Part shown: in pieces, positions 148-10,381 of the stretch
Position numbering within the stretch: the stretch's first letter is position 1
How the letters are laid out: every line of letters begins with the position of its first letter
Assembly (NCBI GenBank): GCA_017543285.1
Contig: JAFYGK010000008.1
Coordinates: 10,558 to 42,557, forward strand
Source of the DNA: Clostridia bacterium
GTDB lineage: Bacteria; Bacillota; Clostridia; Oscillospirales; Acutalibacteraceae
Direction of reading: 5' to 3'
Length of the DNA: 32,000 nt
Translations under genes and position numbers: made by a program
Notes under the pieces: generated by a model
Databases searched by the model: none
Told to the model about the DNA's origin: nothing
The model's input: only the letters and a program-made list of their open reading frames with translations

Positions 148-176
148 TTGACATTGTGTCAGAATAGGTGTATGAT
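148..176 (+). promoter_or_regulatory. sigma-A type promoter of the TetR-led operon: -35 TTGACA (148-153), 17-nt spacer, -10 TATGAT (171-176)
   Basis: Hexamers and spacing read directly. It lies about 45 nt upstream of the TetR start. Confidence 0.6.
149..166. promoter_or_regulatory. Operator-like repeat O1, TGACATTGTGTCAGAATA, with palindromic core TGACA-N3-TGTCA; overlaps the -35
   Basis: 17/18 identical to the 185-202 copy. The inverted-repeat core is typical of TetR-family operators. Confidence 0.6.
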
Positions 177-184
177 ATAGATAC

Positions 185-202
185 TGACACTGTGTCAGAA
201 TA
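185..202. promoter_or_regulatory. Operator-like repeat O2, TGACACTGTGTCAGAATA, with palindromic core TGACA-N3-TGTCA; just downstream of the -10
   Basis: Second copy of the 18-mer, 36 nt from O1, covering the expected transcription start. Confidence 0.6.
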
Positions 203-222
203 AATCGTTACAGGTGAAGATT

Positions 223-846
223 ATGCCGAAGGGTTCTCCCGAGCTGGCCAATGCTCGTAAAGAGGAAATAATATCAGCATGCAAAACTCTCTATAGGGAG
301 ATGAGTTTCAAGGATATAACAATTAAACTGATCGCGGAATACACGAGCTTTTCCCGCGCTTCCATATACAACTATTTCGAAACAAAGGAAGAAATCTTCC
401 TCGCTGTTTTGCAGAAGGAATACGAGCTGTGGGTGGCCGATTTAGAGGATATAACCGGCAGCAGCGAGCGCATGACAAAGGACGCTGTCGCAAGGGCGCT
501 GGCTTCTTCGCTTGAAAAGCGTGAACTGCTTTTAAAACTCATGAGTATGAATCACTACGACATGGAAGAAAACAGCCGGGAGGAGCGGCTTGTTGAGTTC
601 AAGGTGGCATACGGCGCGTCGCTGAAAGCGGTTGATCGACTGCTCAAAAAATTCTGTCCGGAAATGAGCGGGGAAGCAAGACAGATATTTCTGTACTCGT
701 TCTTTCCGTTTGTCTACGGTATCTATCCCTACTCGGTCGTGACGGATAAGCAGAAGCGAGCGATGGAGCGGGCAAATGTCGGGTTCTCCTTCCACTCCAT
801 CTACGACCTGGCATATGTCTGCGCCGTAAAGCTGTTGGAGGGATAA
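223..846 (+). CDS. TetR/AcrR family transcriptional regulator
   Basis: N-terminal HTH (FKDITIKLIAEYTSFSRASIYNYFETKEEIF) and a helical C-terminal domain. ATG 223 follows SD AGGTGA (212-217). The ORF track start, GTG 214, overlaps that SD. Confidence 0.85.
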   Translation: MPKGSPELANARKEEIISACKTLYREMSFKDITIKLIAEYTSFSRASIYNYFETKEEIFLAVLQKEYELWVADLEDITGSSERMTKDAVARALASSLEKRELLLKLMSMNHYDMEENSREERLVEFKVAYGASLKAVDRLLKKFCPEMSGEARQIFLYSFFPFVYGIYPYSVVTDKQKRAMERANVGFSFHSIYDLAYVCAVKLLEG

Positions 847-847
847 C

Positions 848-1177
848 ATGATCACGATAAATATTTATTACAGCGGCAAAAGCGACTGCGCGCGGCGCTT
901 CGCGGAAGAAATGGAGAGCAGCGGAACGGCGGAGCTTATCCGCGCTGAAGAAGGGAATATGAGATATGAATACTTTATTCCTCTCAGCGATCCTGCTGCC
1001 GTACTGCTGATAGACAGCTGGAAGGATCAGGCTTCGCTCGACCGTCATCATGCGTCGCCGATGATGCGGAGGATTGCAGAGCTTCGGGAGAAGTATGATC
1101 TGCATATGCATGTTGAACGATATATCAGCGATCAATCCGGTATAACCGATAACGATAAACAATACATAAAGGAGTAA
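848..1177 (+). CDS. Antibiotic-biosynthesis-monooxygenase (ABM) domain protein, quinol monooxygenase-like
   Basis: About 109 aa, with an ABM-like pattern (IDSWKDQASLDRHHASPMM). GGAGG RBS at 837-841. Starts 2 nt after the TetR stop. Confidence 0.65.
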   Translation: MITINIYYSGKSDCARRFAEEMESSGTAELIRAEEGNMRYEYFIPLSDPAAVLLIDSWKDQASLDRHHASPMMRRIAELREKYDLHMHVERYISDQSGITDNDKQYIKE

Positions 1178-1183
1178 TGCGAT

Positions 1184-1939
1184 ATGAAGAATAAGATCAT
1201 ACAAACGGCAGGCCGGGAGCAGCTCGGCGAATTCGCGCCCGCGTTCGCTCACCTCAACGACGATGTTTTATTCGGAGAAGTATGGAACGAAGAGGCTATC
1301 GGCGTCAAGACCAAGTGTATCGTCACAGTCGTTTCTCTGATGGCGTCGGGAATCACCGATTCCTCGCTTCTTTACCATTTGCAGAATGCCAAGGCACATG
1401 GCGTCACCAAAGAAGAGATCGTCGCGATAATCACCCACGCGACCATGTATGTCGGCTGGCCGAAGGGCTGGGCGGTATTTCGTCTGGCTAAGGAGGTGTG
1501 GAACGAAGAGGTTCCGGCGCCGACCGAAAAGGACAGATTCCAAAGTGAGGTCTTCTTCCCGATCGGAGAACCGAACCCATACGGAGAGTTCTTTGCCGGT
1601 CAGAGCTATCTGGCTCCCGTTTCGACAGAGCAGATACCGATCTACAATGTCACATTTGAGCCTGGATGCCGCAATAACTGGCATATCCATCACGCAAAAA
1701 GCGGCGGCGGTCAGATGCTTATCTGCGTCGGCGGACGCGGCTATTATCAGGAATGGGACAAGGAGCCTGTCGAGCTGACGCCCGGAACGGTTATCAACAT
1801 TCCCGCGAATGTCAGGCATTGGCACGGAGCCGCGCCGAACGCATGGTTCTCACATCTCGCCGTCGAGATCGATGGCGAAGACGCGTCGACCGAATGGCTT
1901 GAGCCTGTTGACCCAGAAGCATATAGCAAATTGAAATAG
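1184..1939 (+). CDS. Carboxymuconolactone decarboxylase (AhpD-like) family domain fused to a C-terminal cupin domain
   Basis: The N-terminal half resembles the CMD family (LFGEVWNEE...VTVVSLMASG...HGVTKEEI...YVGWP). The C-terminal half is cupin-like (NWHIHHAKSGGGQMLICVGGRG...NVRHWHGA). AAGGAG RBS. Confidence 0.75.
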   Translation: MKNKIIQTAGREQLGEFAPAFAHLNDDVLFGEVWNEEAIGVKTKCIVTVVSLMASGITDSSLLYHLQNAKAHGVTKEEIVAIITHATMYVGWPKGWAVFRLAKEVWNEEVPAPTEKDRFQSEVFFPIGEPNPYGEFFAGQSYLAPVSTEQIPIYNVTFEPGCRNNWHIHHAKSGGGQMLICVGGRGYYQEWDKEPVELTPGTVINIPANVRHWHGAAPNAWFSHLAVEIDGEDASTEWLEPVDPEAYSKLK

Positions 1940-1969
1940 GACGGTGTTGCATATGACTAAAAAACAAAG

Positions 1970-2680
1970 TTGGTAAAAACTGCAGCCTTGCTTTTGACAA
2001 TGGTGTTTTTGTTTGCCCTTGTCGCCTGCTCAGGAGCGTCGTCAAACGGTGAAACGCAGACTGCCCCAGCCGCCTCCGCCGAGGTTAAAGAGTCTGATTC
2101 ACAACAGGACGGATCCTCCGAAACCACATCGGATGCCCCTCAAAAAACCGAAACCTCCGAAGCCGATAAGCAGGAAACGACTGAAAAAGCCAGTGAGCCT
2201 GAGACCGGCGGCACAAAAACGCTGGTTGTTTATTTTTCGGCGACAGGCACGACAAAGGGCGTTGCGGAACAGATAGCTTCCGTGACCGGCGCGGACATCT
2301 ATGAGATCACTGCCGCCCAAACATACACAGCGGACGACCTGAACTGGAATGATTCGGAAAGCCGCACAACCAAGGAACAGAACGATAAATCCGTTCGTCC
2401 CGCTATCGGCAGTGACACGACCTCACTCGACGATTATTCCGTCATTTTCATCGGATATCCGATCTGGTGGGGCGAGGAACCGCGCATCATGGATACCTTT
2501 GTCGAGAGCTATGATTTCAGCGGCAAGACCGTGATCCCGTTCTGTACATCAGGCGGATCGGGTATCGGTTCAAGCGGAACAAACCTTGAAGCGAACGCCG
2601 GAAGCGGAAACTGGCTCGAAGGCAAACGACTGAGCGGTTCATCAGATATTGCCGGATGGGTCGACGGACTCGGCTTATAA
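1970..2680 (+). CDS. Lipoprotein flavodoxin: signal peptide with lipobox LVAC, about 65 aa of S/T/E-rich linker, then a flavodoxin (Flavodoxin_4-like) domain
   Basis: MVKTAALLLTMVFLFALVAC|SG lipobox, a low-complexity acidic linker, then LVVYFSATGTTKGVAEQIA...GYPIWWGEEP...FCTSGGSG. TTG start without a clear SD (see the A6-tract finding). Confidence 0.8.
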   Translation: MVKTAALLLTMVFLFALVACSGASSNGETQTAPAASAEVKESDSQQDGSSETTSDAPQKTETSEADKQETTEKASEPETGGTKTLVVYFSATGTTKGVAEQIASVTGADIYEITAAQTYTADDLNWNDSESRTTKEQNDKSVRPAIGSDTTSLDDYSVIFIGYPIWWGEEPRIMDTFVESYDFSGKTVIPFCTSGGSGIGSSGTNLEANAGSGNWLEGKRLSGSSDIAGWVDGLGL

Positions 2681-2717
2681 TTTAAATGAGGCGGCACGCG
2701 TGAAGGGAGCGCTGCGA

Positions 2718-3401
2718 GTGAAGTCAAATAATATTGTCAAACGGGTTCTCGATGTGACGCTGACAGCTGCATTACTGCTGCTGATGGCGTTTCAGGTAAC
2801 CGAACAGCTCATGCATGAGTGGCTGGGGGTCGCCATGTTTGCGCTGACGATCCTGCATAACGTTCTAAACCGCAGATACTATGCGGCGATCTTCAGGGGT
2901 AAGTACAGTCCGCTGAGAATCTTTCGGTTGGTTGTCAATATCCTTTTGGCGCTGTCCTTCGTCTGTACGGCTTTATCGGGCATGATAATGAGCCGATTCG
3001 CGACTCCTTTTATGAACGGGACGCTTCCGCCGTCCGTTGTCCGTCAGGGGCACCTTGCGCTGTCGCACTGGTCGTTTGTGCTGATGGGCTTGCATCTCGG
3101 ACTGCATTTCGGCACCATCACCTCAAAGGTAAAGAAAAAAGCCGTAATAATCACGCTGGGAGCGGCGGCGGGCAGTATTTCGGTTTATGGATTCTATCTG
3201 TTTTTCAAGGCAAATTTCTTTGACTATATGTTTTTCAGGGCTGCTTTTGCTATGCTCGATTATGATAAGGCATGGTGGCTCGTGATACTCGAAAACCTTA
3301 TTATGCTCCTCGCGTGGGGCTTCGCGGCATATTTGCTGTCCCTCGTTCTAAAAACATTCAGACGAAAAAATAAAATCATCGAAAAAGGAGAAAAGTCATG
3401 A
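2718..3401 (+). CDS. His-rich integral membrane protein with about 6 TM segments, DUF4405-like / cytochrome-b-like candidate
   Basis: Six hydrophobic stretches by eye. Conserved-looking His residues in or near them (LMHEWLG, TILHNVLN, QGHLALSHW, GLHLGLHF). GTG 2718 follows GAAGGGAG (2702-2709). The ORF track start at 2649 would overlap the upstream gene. The stop overlaps the next start (ATGA at 3398-3401). Confidence 0.7.
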   Translation: MKSNNIVKRVLDVTLTAALLLLMAFQVTEQLMHEWLGVAMFALTILHNVLNRRYYAAIFRGKYSPLRIFRLVVNILLALSFVCTALSGMIMSRFATPFMNGTLPPSVVRQGHLALSHWSFVLMGLHLGLHFGTITSKVKKKAVIITLGAAAGSISVYGFYLFFKANFFDYMFFRAAFAMLDYDKAWWLVILENLIMLLAWGFAAYLLSLVLKTFRRKNKIIEKGEKS

Positions 3402-3871
3402 GTAAGAAATTAGTTGCTTATTTCTCTGCAAGCGGCACCACCGCAAGAGCCGCAAAGGATTTGGCGAAAGCGGCAGAAGCCGATCTGTACGAGATCAAGC
3501 CTGCCGCCCCGTATACAAAAGCCGATCTTAACTGGATGGATAAGCAGAGCCGCAGCTCTGTTGAAATGCGTGATAAATCCTCGCGTCCTGCTCTCGCCGA
3601 TGCCGATGCGAACATCGCCGGTTATGATACCATTTTTATCGGCTTCCCGATCTGGTGGTATATAGCCCCGACGATCATCAATACCTTCCTTGAAGCGTAT
3701 GATTTCAGCGGCAAAAAGATCGTGCTGTTTGCCACCTCCGGCGGCTCGGGTTTCGGAAAGGCCGTCGACTCTTTACGGCCAAGCGCACCGAAGGCACAGA
3801 TAATCGAAGGCGCGATCCTCAACGGCAGACCAAACGTATCAAGACTCAAGGAGCTTGCGGAGAAATACTGA
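3398..3871 (+). CDS. Cytoplasmic flavodoxin (Flavodoxin_4-like), paralogue of the domain in 1970-2680
   Basis: No signal peptide. LVAYFSASGTTARAA...ADLNW...GFPIWWYIAP...YDFSGKKIVLFATSGGSG. AAAGGAG RBS. Roughly 40-45% identical by eye to the exported paralogue. Confidence 0.85.
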   Translation: MSKKLVAYFSASGTTARAAKDLAKAAEADLYEIKPAAPYTKADLNWMDKQSRSSVEMRDKSSRPALADADANIAGYDTIFIGFPIWWYIAPTIINTFLEAYDFSGKKIVLFATSGGSGFGKAVDSLRPSAPKAQIIEGAILNGRPNVSRLKELAEKY

Positions 3872-4162
3872 TCCTTGACGCTTGCAGACAATCTTTAACC
3901 CCGGAGTCTTCGGCTGAGATATGGTTCTCTATGGTACATCAAAGGCAGGATTTTGGAACATTGATTTCGATGCGGCGCGTACTCATGACTATCTCATAGA
4001 ATTGATCATTTCTCTGTCTGGTCATGGGAAAACAAAGACTTTGCAAGTGCAGTATCAGAAGCAAAAACTGTTATTGACTCCGATCCGAATAATATGTTTT
4101 CTTCAGCATAAAGACGACCTGAGCTTTATTTCGGCTGCGTCATCAGACGCAAAAGTCTATAC

Positions 4163-4195
4163 AAACCGCCTGAATATCAGGCGGTTTTATTTTGT
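4163..4195 (+). terminator. Rho-independent terminator: stem CCGCCTGA/TCAGGCGG, 3-nt loop, then TTTTATTTT
   Basis: Perfect 8-bp GC-rich stem plus a T-run. It lies about 290 nt after the last supported plus-strand CDS. Confidence 0.7.
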
Positions 4196-4200
4196 ACGCA

Positions 4201-4240
4201 TAAAAACAAAGTCCCCGTCCGAATGACCCGGTCGGGGACT
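4201..4240 (-). terminator. Rho-independent terminator downstream of lysS: stem AGTCCCCG/CGGGGACT, T-run on the minus strand
   Basis: 8-bp stem at 4210-4217 and 4233-4240. The plus-strand A-rich run at 4201-4209 gives TTTGTTTTT after the stem on the minus strand. Confidence 0.6.
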
Positions 4241-6565: not shown

Positions 6566-7249
6566 TTATTCCACATAGTCGCCGTTGTAGCTTACGAGCG
6601 ATGCGCTGTAAACTCCGTTGATGAGAGAAACCTTATCGACAAAGGAGGTTGTTTTGCCCTTGACACTGATTTCAACGGTAAGCTCTGTCCTGTTGCGCGA
6701 TACGTTTTTGCTCTTGATTTTGGGATCAAGGCCCCTGAGCTCCTGCATGACGTATTGTGTCAGGCCGGATTCATAAACAACGACAAGAAGATAGATCGTC
6801 TTTTTGGTGCGCAGTTTGAAAAAGACAATGCAGATCGCGCCGATAATCAATGTGGAAATAATGGCGAACAGATAATTCTGCGCTCCGACTATTATACCTT
6901 CGGTCAACGCCCAGAACAAGAATATTATGTCGACGGGGTCCTTGATAGCCGAGCGGAATCGCACGATGGAGAGCGCGCCGACCATACCGAGTGAAAGAGC
7001 GATATTGGAACTGATCGTGATAATAATTGCTGTCGTGATGACGCACATGAGAACAAGGGACACGTTGAAGCTGTGGCTGTAGACAACGCCCTTGTAGGAT
7101 ATTTTATAAACCGCGTAGACGGCAAGTCCCACCACAAGAGAAAACAGGAATGACAGGATCATGTCGGTGATGGAAAACGCGCTCGCTTCCCAGTTTTCAA
7201 CAAACTTACTCTTAAAAAGATCAGAAAATGAATATGCCAATGTGTTCAA
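6566..7249 (-). CDS. DUF4956-like integral membrane protein, partner of the VTC-domain protein
   Basis: Multi-TM N-terminal part plus a soluble C-terminal domain. TTG 7249 overlaps the upstream stop (TTGA) and follows GGAAGGAG by 9 nt. An alternative ATG at 7294 would overlap the upstream gene by 49 nt. Confidence 0.7.
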   Translation of the reverse strand: MNTLAYSFSDLFKSKFVENWEASAFSITDMILSFLFSLVVGLAVYAVYKISYKGVVYSHSFNVSLVLMCVITTAIIITISSNIALSLGMVGALSIVRFRSAIKDPVDIIFLFWALTEGIIVGAQNYLFAIISTLIIGAICIVFFKLRTKKTIYLLVVVYESGLTQYVMQELRGLDPKIKSKNVSRNRTELTVEISVKGKTTSFVDKVSLINGVYSASLVSYNGDYVE

Positions 7250-7971
7250 GCTAATTCGCTCCTTCCGCTGTATTGCATTGCCTTTTGTCTGCAAAGAACA
7301 TATTTTGAAATTGCCATATGGTACTGGGTTGCCGGCTGGACGATCTGTCTTATATGAGCCGGCAGGTAATCGTCGAATTTAACCTCCAGAACGAGCAGCC
7401 TCGGGGGATAGGCGTCCACCGTGATAAGCTGCGGATCAAAAATATCGATTCCGTTCACTCCGGCTCTCAGGCGGCTGTCAAAGGTGATCCTGACATTGCC
7501 TTCGTTGGCGATAAAGGCCTCTCTCATATAATCGACCACGACGCAAGGCTTAAGCAGCCGCGTTTTGTTGGCGATATATACGTCGCGGAGAAGGGGAGAG
7601 TCGCTCGAAAGCATGAAGCTGTAGTCGCCGTCCATTATGCTTTCGTACTGCGGCCTGCTTATTATCGCGGTGCTCTTGGAGATGTATTCGGCGAATTTCT
7701 CTTTCTTTTCTATCCGTATTATGCTGTCCGACTTGTTATAGATCCGTATCCGGTATTTAGAGCGGTGAAAGACTCCGCCTTCCTTTTGCTCCATTGCCGA
7801 ATTGTAGACGTCGTCAAAATACAGCGAGCGGATATGGTAGCTGCTGGTGCCCTCATAATTGTTCCGATCACGGTGCATGCAGTGCTTGAGCCGCTCGCGC
7901 AGAATAACATATTCCGGCCAGTTGATGTAGTACTTCTGCTCGTGTCTGAGGGTCTTTCCTTGATATTTCAT
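7246..7971 (-). CDS. VTC-domain (polyphosphate polymerase domain / triphosphate-tunnel) protein
   Basis: N-terminal RHEQKYYI, plus YHIRSLYFD and KYRIRIY strands typical of bacterial VTC/CYTH-like proteins. ATG 7971 preferred over the upstream TTG at 8016. Confidence 0.75.
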   Translation of the reverse strand: MKYQGKTLRHEQKYYINWPEYVILRERLKHCMHRDRNNYEGTSSYHIRSLYFDDVYNSAMEQKEGGVFHRSKYRIRIYNKSDSIIRIEKKEKFAEYISKSTAIISRPQYESIMDGDYSFMLSSDSPLLRDVYIANKTRLLKPCVVVDYMREAFIANEGNVRITFDSRLRAGVNGIDIFDPQLITVDAYPPRLLVLEVKFDDYLPAHIRQIVQPATQYHMAISKYVLCRQKAMQYSGRSELA

Positions 7972-8174
7972 GAAATCAACCTTTATGATTCGCTGTTTGG
8001 TAATAAAAGACAACAAACAGCAAAGAAAATAATGATATTTTTAGTAAATTAATACAAAAAACGCTTCAGAACATACAAAATCCAAGGGGAAGAAAGAAAT
8101 CAACCCCTCAGATGGACGGCTCGGTATGTTTTTGCATTAATCAGCTTAAAATAACATATTATTGCATTTTCTAT

Positions 8175-9386: not shown

Positions 9387-9806
9387 ATGCCGAACAAAAC
9401 CAATAAGGCATATGGGCCCTCCAAAAAAGAGCGCAACACCCGCCAAAAGGAAACCGTCCGAGCCGCCTTTTGCGGAATGAGGAATCATCCGACCGCACAA
9501 ATGGTTTATGAAGAGGCGGTTAAGCTCGACCGGTCAATTGGACGCGCCACCGTATACCGCATATTAAACTCGTTTGTCGAAAGCGGAGCCGCCGTCAGGG
9601 TACCGGTTTCCGACGGAGCCGACCGTTTTGATATAACCCTCACGCCGCATGCTCACGCCAGATGCAGGGTCTGCGGCGCGGTTTTCGACGTTGAGCTTTG
9701 CGGCGAAATGCCGAAGGCAAAGGAAACCGGCAGATTTGAAATCGAGTCCTGCGCTGTGCTTTTCAGCGGACTTTGCAGAGAATGCAAAAAGGTCAAAAAT
9801 GCGTAA
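9387..9806 (+). CDS. Fur family transcriptional repressor, PerR-like by context
   Basis: Winged-helix region ([14 protein letters not shown]) and two CxxC pairs (CRVCG, CRECK). Immediately upstream of rubrerythrin. Confidence 0.85.
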
Positions 9807-9841
9807 AACGCAAAAAATATAATAATATGGAGGAAATCACC

Positions 9842-10381
9842 ATGAAGTATGTATGTCCCGTTTGCGGTTATGTCCATGAGGGAGACGCACCCCCCGAAAA
9901 ATGTCCCATCTGCGGAGTTCCCGGCGCGAAGTTCACCGTCCAGCAGGGCGAAATGACATGGGCAGCCGAGCATGTTGTCGGAGTTGCTGCCGACGCTCCC
10001 GAGGATATCAAGAAGGATCTCAGAGATAATTTCACAGGCGAATGTTCCGAAGTCGGCATGTATCTCGCCATGGCGAGAGTAGCATACCGCGAGGGCTATC
10101 CCGAGATCGGACTTTACTGGGAAAAGGCTGCCTTTGAAGAGGCTGATCATGCGGCAAGATTTGCTGAGCTTCTGGGCGAGGTCGTGACCGACTCCACCAA
10201 GAAGAATCTCCAGATGCGTGTTGACGCCGAGAACGGCGCGACAGCAGGCAAGACCGACCTCGCAAAGAGAGCAAAGGCCCTCAACCTCGACGCCATCCAC
10301 GACACCGTCCATGAGATGGCCCGCGACGAAGCGAGACATGGGAAGGCTCTTAAAGGTCTCCTTGACAGATATTTCGGCTAA
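9842..10381 (+). CDS. Reverse rubrerythrin: N-terminal rubredoxin-like domain plus C-terminal diiron ferritin-like domain
   Basis: [10 protein letters not shown]...CPICG at the N-terminus. ExxH diiron motifs ([18 protein letters not shown]). ATG 9842 follows GGAGG. Confidence 0.9.

Follow-up and report, generated by a model that had tools for sequence, protein, structure and literature searches.

Described DUF4405 systems and related routes of electron export

The DUF4405 proteins were placed in the cytochrome b family by HHpred (Makarova et al. 2015; PMC5898192), and members of the family were later found by mining the gene neighbourhoods of apbE (Huang et al. 2024, mSystems; PMC11334425). 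According to the latter study, (i) the DUF4405 clusters often include flavinylated Flavodoxin_4 proteins and a flavin transporter, (ii) the flavinylated Flavodoxin_4 proteins carry inserted residues between strand 1 and helix 1, among them a Ser/Thr shown by experiment to be flavinylated, (iii) extracytosolic flavodoxins are argued to be flavinylated and cytosolic ones unflavinylated, with the DUF4405 cytochromes proposed as membrane relays to the extracytosolic Flavodoxin_4, and (iv) only a minority of DUF4405 genes are near apbE, the others being left unexplored apart from FezC. The DUF4405 gene considered here belongs to this non-apbE majority. It is encoded in a 32,000-nucleotide (nt) stretch of DNA, hereafter the window, from a Clostridia bacterium of the Acutalibacteraceae (GenBank assembly GCA_017543285.1, contig JAFYGK010000008.1, positions 10,558 to 42,557), where it lies between the genes of an exported and a cytoplasmic flavodoxin (window positions 1970-3871, + strand). 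The three genes probably specify an outward transmembrane electron relay. All three open reading frames (ORFs) were found at the coordinates and on the strand given by an earlier reading of the DNA, the original prediction.

The locus resembles the clusters of Huang et al. in the Pfam family of its membrane protein, the six transmembrane (TM) helices, the four central conserved His residues and the presence of an extracytosolic Flavodoxin_4 beside the cytochrome gene. By contrast, it is without apbE and without the flavinylation insert or motif, and Pfam scans of window ORFs point to no flavin transporter. The locus also encodes, and its relatives fuse to the cytochrome, a cytoplasmic Flavodoxin_4 or FMN_red partner, a component for which no mention was found in the available text of Huang et al. 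The architecture had originally been regarded as uncharacterised; this does not hold for the general principle, which was published in 2024 (PMC11334425), but it does for the ApbE-independent version with a cytoplasmic flavoprotein partner. New here are the non-flavinylated lipoprotein-flavodoxin version, the cytoplasmic flavoprotein donor and the setting with TetR, aldo-keto reductase (AKR) and cupin genes in rumen Firmicutes.

In mechanism, the closest analogue is MsrQ, which works between a flavin-dependent donor in the cytosol and an acceptor in the periplasm. Like the proposed relay, MsrQ-MsrP with its cytosolic flavin reductase, and the NOX/STEAP enzymes, pass electrons from a cytosolic flavin-dependent donor through a six-TM protein with b-type haem to an extracytoplasmic redox protein (PMC12525009). 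MsrQ differs in that it carries b-type haem and flavin mononucleotide (FMN) in the membrane protein itself and in that its acceptor is a molybdoenzyme (PMC12525009). The window protein is nevertheless not a member of the MsrQ/ferric reductase group (FRD, NOX, STEAP), as it has no Ferric_reduct match in Pfam and no significant sequence or fold match in the PDB. Two bis-His haems stacked across a membrane helical bundle are also the arrangement of FdnI (formate dehydrogenase-N), cytochrome b561 and Dcytb; the partners of these proteins are quinones or ascorbate, not flavodoxins, and they too show no significant sequence or fold match to the window protein.

Flavin-based extracellular electron transfer in Listeria (Light et al. 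2018) reportedly runs from Ndh2 through demethylmenaquinone and EetA/EetB to the lipoprotein PplA, which is flavinylated by FmnB/ApbE. As in the window locus, an FMN-carrying surface lipoprotein of a Gram-positive cell would be the last protein-bound carrier of an outward path. The Listeria path differs in that PplA has FMN_bind domains with covalent FMN, the membrane step uses a quinone and EetA/B rather than a cytochrome, and the donor is NADH via Ndh2 rather than a flavodoxin. No FMN_bind or ApbE/FmnB protein is present among the window ORFs scanned, nor does the Pfam scan of these ORFs reveal any other domain of the Listeria-type locus; no search by name was made for Ndh2, EetA/EetB or the genes of quinone synthesis.

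The DUF4405 protein as a credible di-haem cytochrome b

The membrane protein matches PF14358 (DUF4405) as its sole Pfam family, scoring 33.3 bits where the cut-off is 26.7 (E 6.8e-8), which confirms the family named in the original prediction. A transporter or other non-redox family, raised there as the outcome that would count against the idea, is not what is found: no family other than DUF4405 is matched, and a purified Oscillospiraceae member of the family shows haem b spectra (Huang et al.; PMC11334425). By analogy, the window protein may be loaded with haem as well. An exhaustive homologue search with the protein returns 2548 cluster representatives at E<=1e-3. The GTG start at 2718 lies 38 nt past the stop of the first flavodoxin gene, as predicted, has AGGGAG 8 nt upstream and agrees with the N-termini of homologues (MKSN.IVKRV.D). 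Public gene calls start at GTG 2700, which adds six residues and is immaterial, and TTG 2649 is another possible upstream start.

Hydropathy and an AlphaFold2 model with six long helices (predicted local distance difference test, pLDDT, 95.2; predicted template modelling score, pTM, 0.90) agree on six TM helices, where about six had been expected. Positively charged loops are found at the N-terminus, between TM2 and TM3, between TM4 and TM5 and at the C-terminus, and the N- and C-termini are predicted to be cytoplasmic from hydropathy and the positive-inside rule. The conservation of the His residues was scored in 117 full-length representatives, most of which are 30-50% identical to the query. 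H112 (3051-3053) and H126 (3093-3095) are conserved in 100% of these sequences, H33 (2814-2816) and H47 (2856-2858) in 97%, H130 (3105-3107) in 95% and H117 in only 24%. The proposal that His residues in or near the TM segments ligate haem is thus supported for H33, H47, H112 and H126, which are also invariant in a 41-sequence alignment, and fails for H117 of the 'GH..SHW' motif. In the AlphaFold2 model, H33 and H47 reside on TM2 (helix 25-50) and H112 and H126 on TM4 (helix 105-136), with 14 residues within each pair. This is the spacing at which bis-His haems sit in the di-haem four-helix cytochromes b of the bc1 and b6f complexes. The DUF4405 protein is, on the conserved His pairs and their place in the model, a credible di-haem cytochrome b. 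As there are six TM helices with both ends cytoplasmic, the outer haem would be held by H33/H112 and the inner haem by H47/H126.

The exported flavodoxin

The first gene encodes a Flavodoxin_4 domain (PF12682, E 1.4e-52) at residues 83-232 (2216-2665). Read from TTG 1970, the protein has the N-terminus MVKTAALLLTMVFLFALVAC, in which residues 1-20 form a signal peptide (MVKTAALLLTMVFLFALVA-C) with an LVAC lipobox, the lipobox Cys being codon 20 (2027-2029); an S/T/E-rich tether of about 60 residues (about 21-80) follows the Cys. Public gene callers instead start at ATG 2000 and yield a 226-residue product annotated as a flavodoxin, so that most of the signal peptide is lost. The TTG 1970 start is favoured because the lipobox Cys with full signal is present in 120 of the 120 closest homologues (61-100% identical, most full-length), mostly at residues 20-26. 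The lipoprotein signal is also found in 41 flavodoxins of related loci; these loci come from a scan of one genome per species that gave 80 loci, nearly all from metagenome-assembled genomes of rumen or gut and assigned to Ruminococcus-like Clostridia, Acutalibacteraceae, Anaerovoracaceae/Mogibacterium, Lachnospiraceae and Erysipelotrichaceae. The lipoprotein signal with LVAC lipobox claimed for the first flavodoxin is therefore no artefact of start-codon choice, a possibility that had been allowed for. The lipoprotein calls were made by regular expression and hydropathy, not by SignalP or LipoP, and the call for the window protein depends on the TTG 1970 start. A Tat signal was considered and ruled out, as the window protein is without RR and most homologues have K/R-K.

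The closest solved structures to the exported flavodoxin are the FMN flavoproteins 4ICI (E 5e-46) and 3KLB (E 2e-43), of which 3KLB holds non-covalent FMN (PMC11334425). For the Bacteroides Flavodoxin_4 structures 4ICI, 3KLB and 4J8P, E values range from 5e-46 to 5e-42, and the alignments run through the phosphate-binding loop with no gap. They differ in being structural-genomics proteins without an assigned partner or function, and the window's first copy adds to their fold a lipoprotein signal and a long tether. Both flavodoxin copies of the window match NCBIfam PRK07116 above cut-off, and weak Flavodoxin_4 matches to the FMN_red and Flavodoxin_2 quinone-reductase folds are seen in Pfam. Within the lipoprotein clade, the FMN-binding motifs (FSxTGxT, PIWW, TSGGSG) are 93-100% conserved and signature residues of its own are present; thus, the exported clade is an old, selected paralogue rather than a decaying copy. 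On these motifs, the exported flavodoxin is predicted to bind FMN.

Covalent attachment of this FMN by ApbE is not indicated. No apbE is detected in the window or the 80 related loci (every ORF was compared by phmmer with E. coli ApbE/Ftp, the related loci including flanks of as much as 8 kb per side where the contig allowed, and no hit reached even E<=10), and none is found in the Pfam scans of the window ORFs. The window's exported flavodoxin has no flavinylation insert, as it is gap-free in this region against both its cytosolic paralogue and 4ICI, and 40 of 41 lipoprotein flavodoxins likewise have nothing inserted between strand 1 and helix 1. Any [ST]GA[ST] occurs in only 3 of the 120 surface-flavodoxin homologues. 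The SGAS that directly follows the lipobox Cys was considered as an ApbE motif and ruled out, as it is not conserved among homologues. With apbE and the Ser/Thr-bearing Flavodoxin_4 insert both absent, the two features that define flavinylation-associated systems fail and the locus stands outside that class. The outer flavodoxin, having no ApbE flavinylation site, would therefore have to bind its FMN non-covalently after Sec export.

Other forms of export are noted in relatives, where the flavodoxin adjacent to DUF4405 has a Sec signal together with a Dockerin_1 domain (L005, L021, L010, L086) or a Big_2 domain (L081). The Dockerin_1 domain implies attachment to a cellulosome scaffold, and the proteins would hence be cellulosome-borne flavodoxins. 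The Sec, Dockerin_1 and Flavodoxin_4 proteins are encoded at L005:7134-7937, L021:7139-7933, L010:8852-9625 and L086:3117-3881, and the dockerin-flavodoxin genes adjoin DUF4405 genes whose products are 69-74% identical to that of the window. Two further contigs concern the window itself: metagenome contig L001 is identical to it in sequence, and L002:1-1005 (= window 1695-2718), otherwise 99.6% identical, shows the lipoprotein flavodoxin gene split by an indel of 1 nt, which is either an assembly error or the mark of a strain whose surface flavodoxin is inactivated.

The cytoplasmic flavodoxin and the sidedness of the cytochrome

The product of the last gene is a Flavodoxin_4 protein (E 2.9e-70) in which Pfam and hydropathy find no signal peptide, as predicted. 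Its start codon has AAGGAG 7 nt upstream and, as expected, shares an ATGA (3398-3401) with the stop codon of the cytochrome gene. A gap-free alignment of 146 residues puts the two flavodoxin domains at 47% identity (E 1e-48), and they have the common motifs listed for them; they are the paralogues they had been taken for.

The side of the membrane on which this partner acts is indicated by natural fusions. In many relatives, TM6 is followed by a positively charged loop, a seventh hydrophobic helix, a polar linker and then domains that are necessarily extracellular. In P0143, the seventh TM leads to a pair of FMN_bind domains whose DTxSGAT flavinylation sites are canonical, while relatives of 710-742 residues have an FGE-sulfatase domain (PF03781) and usually a further Flavodoxin_4, predicted to be extracellular. 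By contrast, fusions without the extra helix join flavoproteins directly to the end of TM6. P0060 (L086:3920-5092; also L087) is an in-frame fusion of DUF4405 to the short flavodoxin directly after TM6; it is 69% identical to the window protein, it recurs on three contigs that derive from two or more sequencing runs, and its operon is like that of the window in having a TetR gene, a carboxymuconolactone-decarboxylase (CMD)-cupin gene and a lipoprotein flavodoxin gene. In L022, an FMN_red flavoprotein is fused directly after TM6, again with no extra TM. Since flavoproteins are fused there without an extra TM and exported domains with a seventh, the C-terminal side of TM6 is cytoplasmic, and the product of the overlapping gene at 3398-3871 is therefore the cytoplasmic partner.

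Extended cytochrome ORFs of the FGE type, 711-742 residues long, are present in L008, L027, L058, L061-L063, L068 and L079-L083 (proteins P0124 and P0137). Lipoproteins with DUF362 (CDCDG motif) or Cyclophil_like2 domains are encoded just downstream of the cytochrome gene in L059:1662-2672, L060:8383-9369 and L073:9260-9892, and are possible extracellular partners; a cyclophilin-like domain is also fused to DUF4405 (P0133).

These partners of relatives raise the question of whether the locus is a supply line, similar to MsrQ-MsrP, to a dedicated extracellular enzyme or structure encoded elsewhere in the genome, such as an FGE-sulfatase-like domain, a DUF362 or cyclophilin-like lipoprotein or a cellulosome-bound partner. 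The fusion of DUF4405 through a seventh TM to an extracellular FGE-sulfatase domain with Flavodoxin_4, the dockerin-flavodoxins encoded beside the cytochrome gene of some relatives and the DUF362 and cyclophilin-like lipoproteins clustered with it in others all speak for such a role. However, the candidate partners are missing from the operon of the window as well as from the rest of its 32 kb; a dedicated supply line is rated as unlikely for this locus.

The proposed relay

In the outward relay, the cytoplasmic FMN flavodoxin (3398-3871) would be reduced by central anaerobic metabolism, dock on the cytoplasmic face of the DUF4405 cytochrome b and reduce the inner haem (H47/H126). The electron would then move to the outer haem (H33/H112) and on to the FMN of the paralogous flavodoxin, which would be held on the outer face by its lipid anchor and tether of about 60 residues. 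The surface flavodoxin would finally pass the electron to an acceptor outside the cell, encoded elsewhere. The order of carriers is that of the original prediction. The analysis establishes the domain identities, the export signal, the topology, the conservation and spacing of the His residues, the gene linkage and the fusions, and haem b binding is published for a family member; electron transfer itself and its direction, the haem and FMN loading of these particular proteins, their direct contact, the acceptor and the role in physiology are inferred. The three genes are considered rather likely to act in this way.

The outward direction is proposed because the membrane potential and fermenter physiology favour it and because it is the direction in all known analogues. 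The hardware is symmetrical, with a paralogous flavodoxin on each side, and sequence alone leaves the direction unfixed, such that the surface flavodoxin might instead take electrons from external reduced shuttles and pass them through the cytochrome to the cytoplasmic flavodoxin. Inward flow would, however, work against the inside-negative membrane potential, as is established in bioenergetics, and fermentative anaerobes have cytoplasmic reductant in excess. All characterised relatives and analogues (MsrQ, NOX/STEAP, cytochrome b561 and the flavinylated systems of PMC11334425) export electrons, and the inward reading is regarded as highly improbable.

The linkage of the three genes was counted over the 77 of the 80 related loci that have a callable cytochrome ORF. 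A Flavodoxin_4 gene is immediately upstream of the cytochrome gene in 50/77, and the upstream flavodoxin is scored as a lipoprotein in 33/77. A short, signal-less flavodoxin is found within five genes in 28 of the loci and directly downstream, as in the window, in five; a 177-residue FMN_red protein is directly downstream in 13. Taken together, a cytoplasmic short flavodoxin or FMN_red protein is within five genes of the cytochrome in 35/77, and the full trio is present in 25/77. Co-occurrence of the trio in related genomes, on which the original prediction depended, is thus seen across several families, in some cases as fusions. The arrangement goes far beyond chance, and none of the outcomes named beforehand as refuting was encountered. 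The recurrent operon order is TetR, short flavodoxin, AKR, cupin, (AKR), lipoprotein flavodoxin, DUF4405 and (FMN_red or flavodoxin).

Several observations weigh against the relay. (i) The cytochrome has no solved structural relative: Foldseek finds no significant match in the PDB (best E 1.5), the resemblance to FdnI, cytochrome b561 and Dcytb is weak and not significant (template modelling scores 0.39-0.42), and a profile search of PDB sequences gives only a chance-level match to mitochondrial cytochrome b (E 0.33). (ii) Haem synthesis is not known in many Ruminococcus-like Clostridia, and the supply of haem is unexplained. (iii) A Sec-exported flavodoxin must acquire and keep non-covalent FMN outside the cell, which is likewise unexplained. 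(iv) No clear ribosome-binding site is seen upstream of TTG 1970. (v) No terminal acceptor is encoded in the operon. (vi) The closest cytochrome homologues (70-74% identity) are often in other contexts without a lipoprotein flavodoxin. (vii) An AlphaFold2 model of the P0060 cytochrome-flavodoxin fusion, built from a shallow alignment, has a pTM of 0.64 and no defined docking geometry.

The last of these points could be taken to mean that there is no relay, in which case the lipoprotein would bind or scavenge flavin and the DUF4405 protein would be an unrelated operon mate, e.g., a quinol-linked cytochrome or a ferric reductase. This is quite improbable, given that the flavodoxin and cytochrome genes are immediately adjacent in 50/77 loci over several families, that DUF4405 has been fused repeatedly and independently to flavodoxin-type or FMN_bind domains on both faces of the membrane, and that the exported clade strictly retains the flavodoxin motifs needed for redox activity.

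Returning to the outward relay, its likely use is suggested by its neighbours. As the operon is TetR-controlled and includes cupin, AhpD-like and antibiotic-biosynthesis-monooxygenase (ABM) domain enzymes, a role in core respiration seems less likely than a response induced by oxygen or by some electrophilic or redox-active compound. More specifically, the surface flavodoxin may reduce oxygen, peroxides, quinones or plant-derived electrophiles before entry, with induction through TetR together with AKR, cupin and AhpD-like enzymes. In the related loci, the partners are typical of stress and carbonyl detoxification, with a homologous TetR gene heading the operon in 25/77, AKR in 35/77 and a cupin homologue in 27/77. 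The FMN_red (iron-sulfur-flavoprotein-like) genes that follow the cytochrome gene in 13 loci, the weak Flavodoxin_4 matches to quinone-reductase folds and the Fur-family and rubrerythrin genes 5.5 kb downstream in the window are also consistent with detoxification. On the other side, the enzymes named are of broad families and the Fur-rubrerythrin genes form a separate transcription unit. A role in detoxification is regarded as possible but doubtful; it refines the relay and does not exclude it.

Operon organisation and surroundings

The three genes are the last of six in a single compact operon at 148-4187 (+), in which TetR is first and the gaps between genes are 1 to 37 nt (Table 1). Each TGACAnTGTGTCAGAAT copy at the promoter has inside it the palindrome TGACAnnGTGTCA, and the pair is, from its position and symmetry, the probable operator for the operon's own TetR repressor. 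The true start of the TetR gene is probably ATG 223, and the stem-loop downstream is the probable terminator of the operon. The ABM protein was considered as a haem-handling partner and ruled out, since it is present in only about 4/77 related loci.

Table 1. Features of the TetR-flavodoxin-cytochrome operon (window positions)
Feature	Position	Strand	Evidence or remark
Near-consensus sigma-70 promoter	148-176	+	TTGACA-17-TATGAT
Two TGACAnTGTGTCAGAAT copies	149-165, 185-201	+	Overlap promoter, either side of -10 box
TetR-family regulator, operon gene 1	214-846	+	Pfam TetR_N + TetR_C_34
ABM-domain protein (antibiotic-biosynthesis-monooxygenase fold), cytoplasmic	848-1177	+	Pfam PF03992, E 4.6e-13
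CMD (AhpD-like) + cupin fusion protein, cytoplasmic	1184-1939	+	Pfam
Surface lipoprotein flavodoxin	1970-2680	+	Flavodoxin_4 PF12682
DUF4405 six-TM protein, predicted di-haem cytochrome b	2718-3401	+	PF14358
Cytoplasmic Flavodoxin_4, no signal peptide	3398-3871	+	Pfam
Strong stem-loop (11 bp, 6 G-C), then T-run	4163-4187	+	About 290 nt past last gene

Between the last gene and the stem-loop (3872-4162, about 290 nt), there is only an unsupported ORF of 101 residues (3921-4226) with no Pfam match, and the region has no Rfam match; an FMN riboswitch or other RNA element is not detected by Rfam across the 32 kb. Outside the operon, the window encodes a VTC-domain protein paired with a DUF4956 membrane protein (6566-8016, - strand), a polyphosphate-related pair that is apparently separate from the flavodoxin operon, and the Fur-family regulator beside rubrerythrin at 9387-10381 (+). 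The remaining genes are housekeeping: lysS, greA, metG, recD2, scpAB, sporulation genes and a carboxylase.

Implications for extracellular flavin redox in rumen and gut Firmicutes

Bacterial extracytosolic flavoproteins are thought to need covalent attachment of flavin by ApbE against loss of the cofactor, and Huang et al. (PMC11334425) drew this contrast between flavinylated proteins outside and unflavinylated ones inside. If the exported clade described here is loaded and active, this rule would have a sizeable exception spread over dozens of loci of rumen anaerobes, as the FMN motifs are fully conserved, no flavinylation site is present and no apbE is nearby. Tentatively, rumen and gut Firmicutes may have a widespread, ApbE-independent form of extracellular flavin redox, in which flavodoxins with non-covalent FMN are fed straight from cytoplasmic flavodoxin through dedicated di-haem DUF4405 cytochromes with no quinone, and which would amount to a previously unrecognised extracellular reductase activity. 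The export forms would then include: (i) lipoproteins, (ii) dockerin-bearing proteins attached to the cellulosome and (iii) extensions of the cytochrome past a seventh TM. Candidate outputs would be the scavenging of oxygen or quinones, the detoxification of plant compounds and, through the FGE-like domains, redox support of fibre degradation.

The locus would name a complete, quinone-free path of three proteins for low-potential electrons out of a fermentative Gram-positive cell, with the cytoplasmic donor identified by a natural gene fusion. The function of the non-ApbE majority of DUF4405 genes thereby becomes directly testable, and the surface and cellulosome-bound flavodoxins would be unexplored redox players in the rumen.

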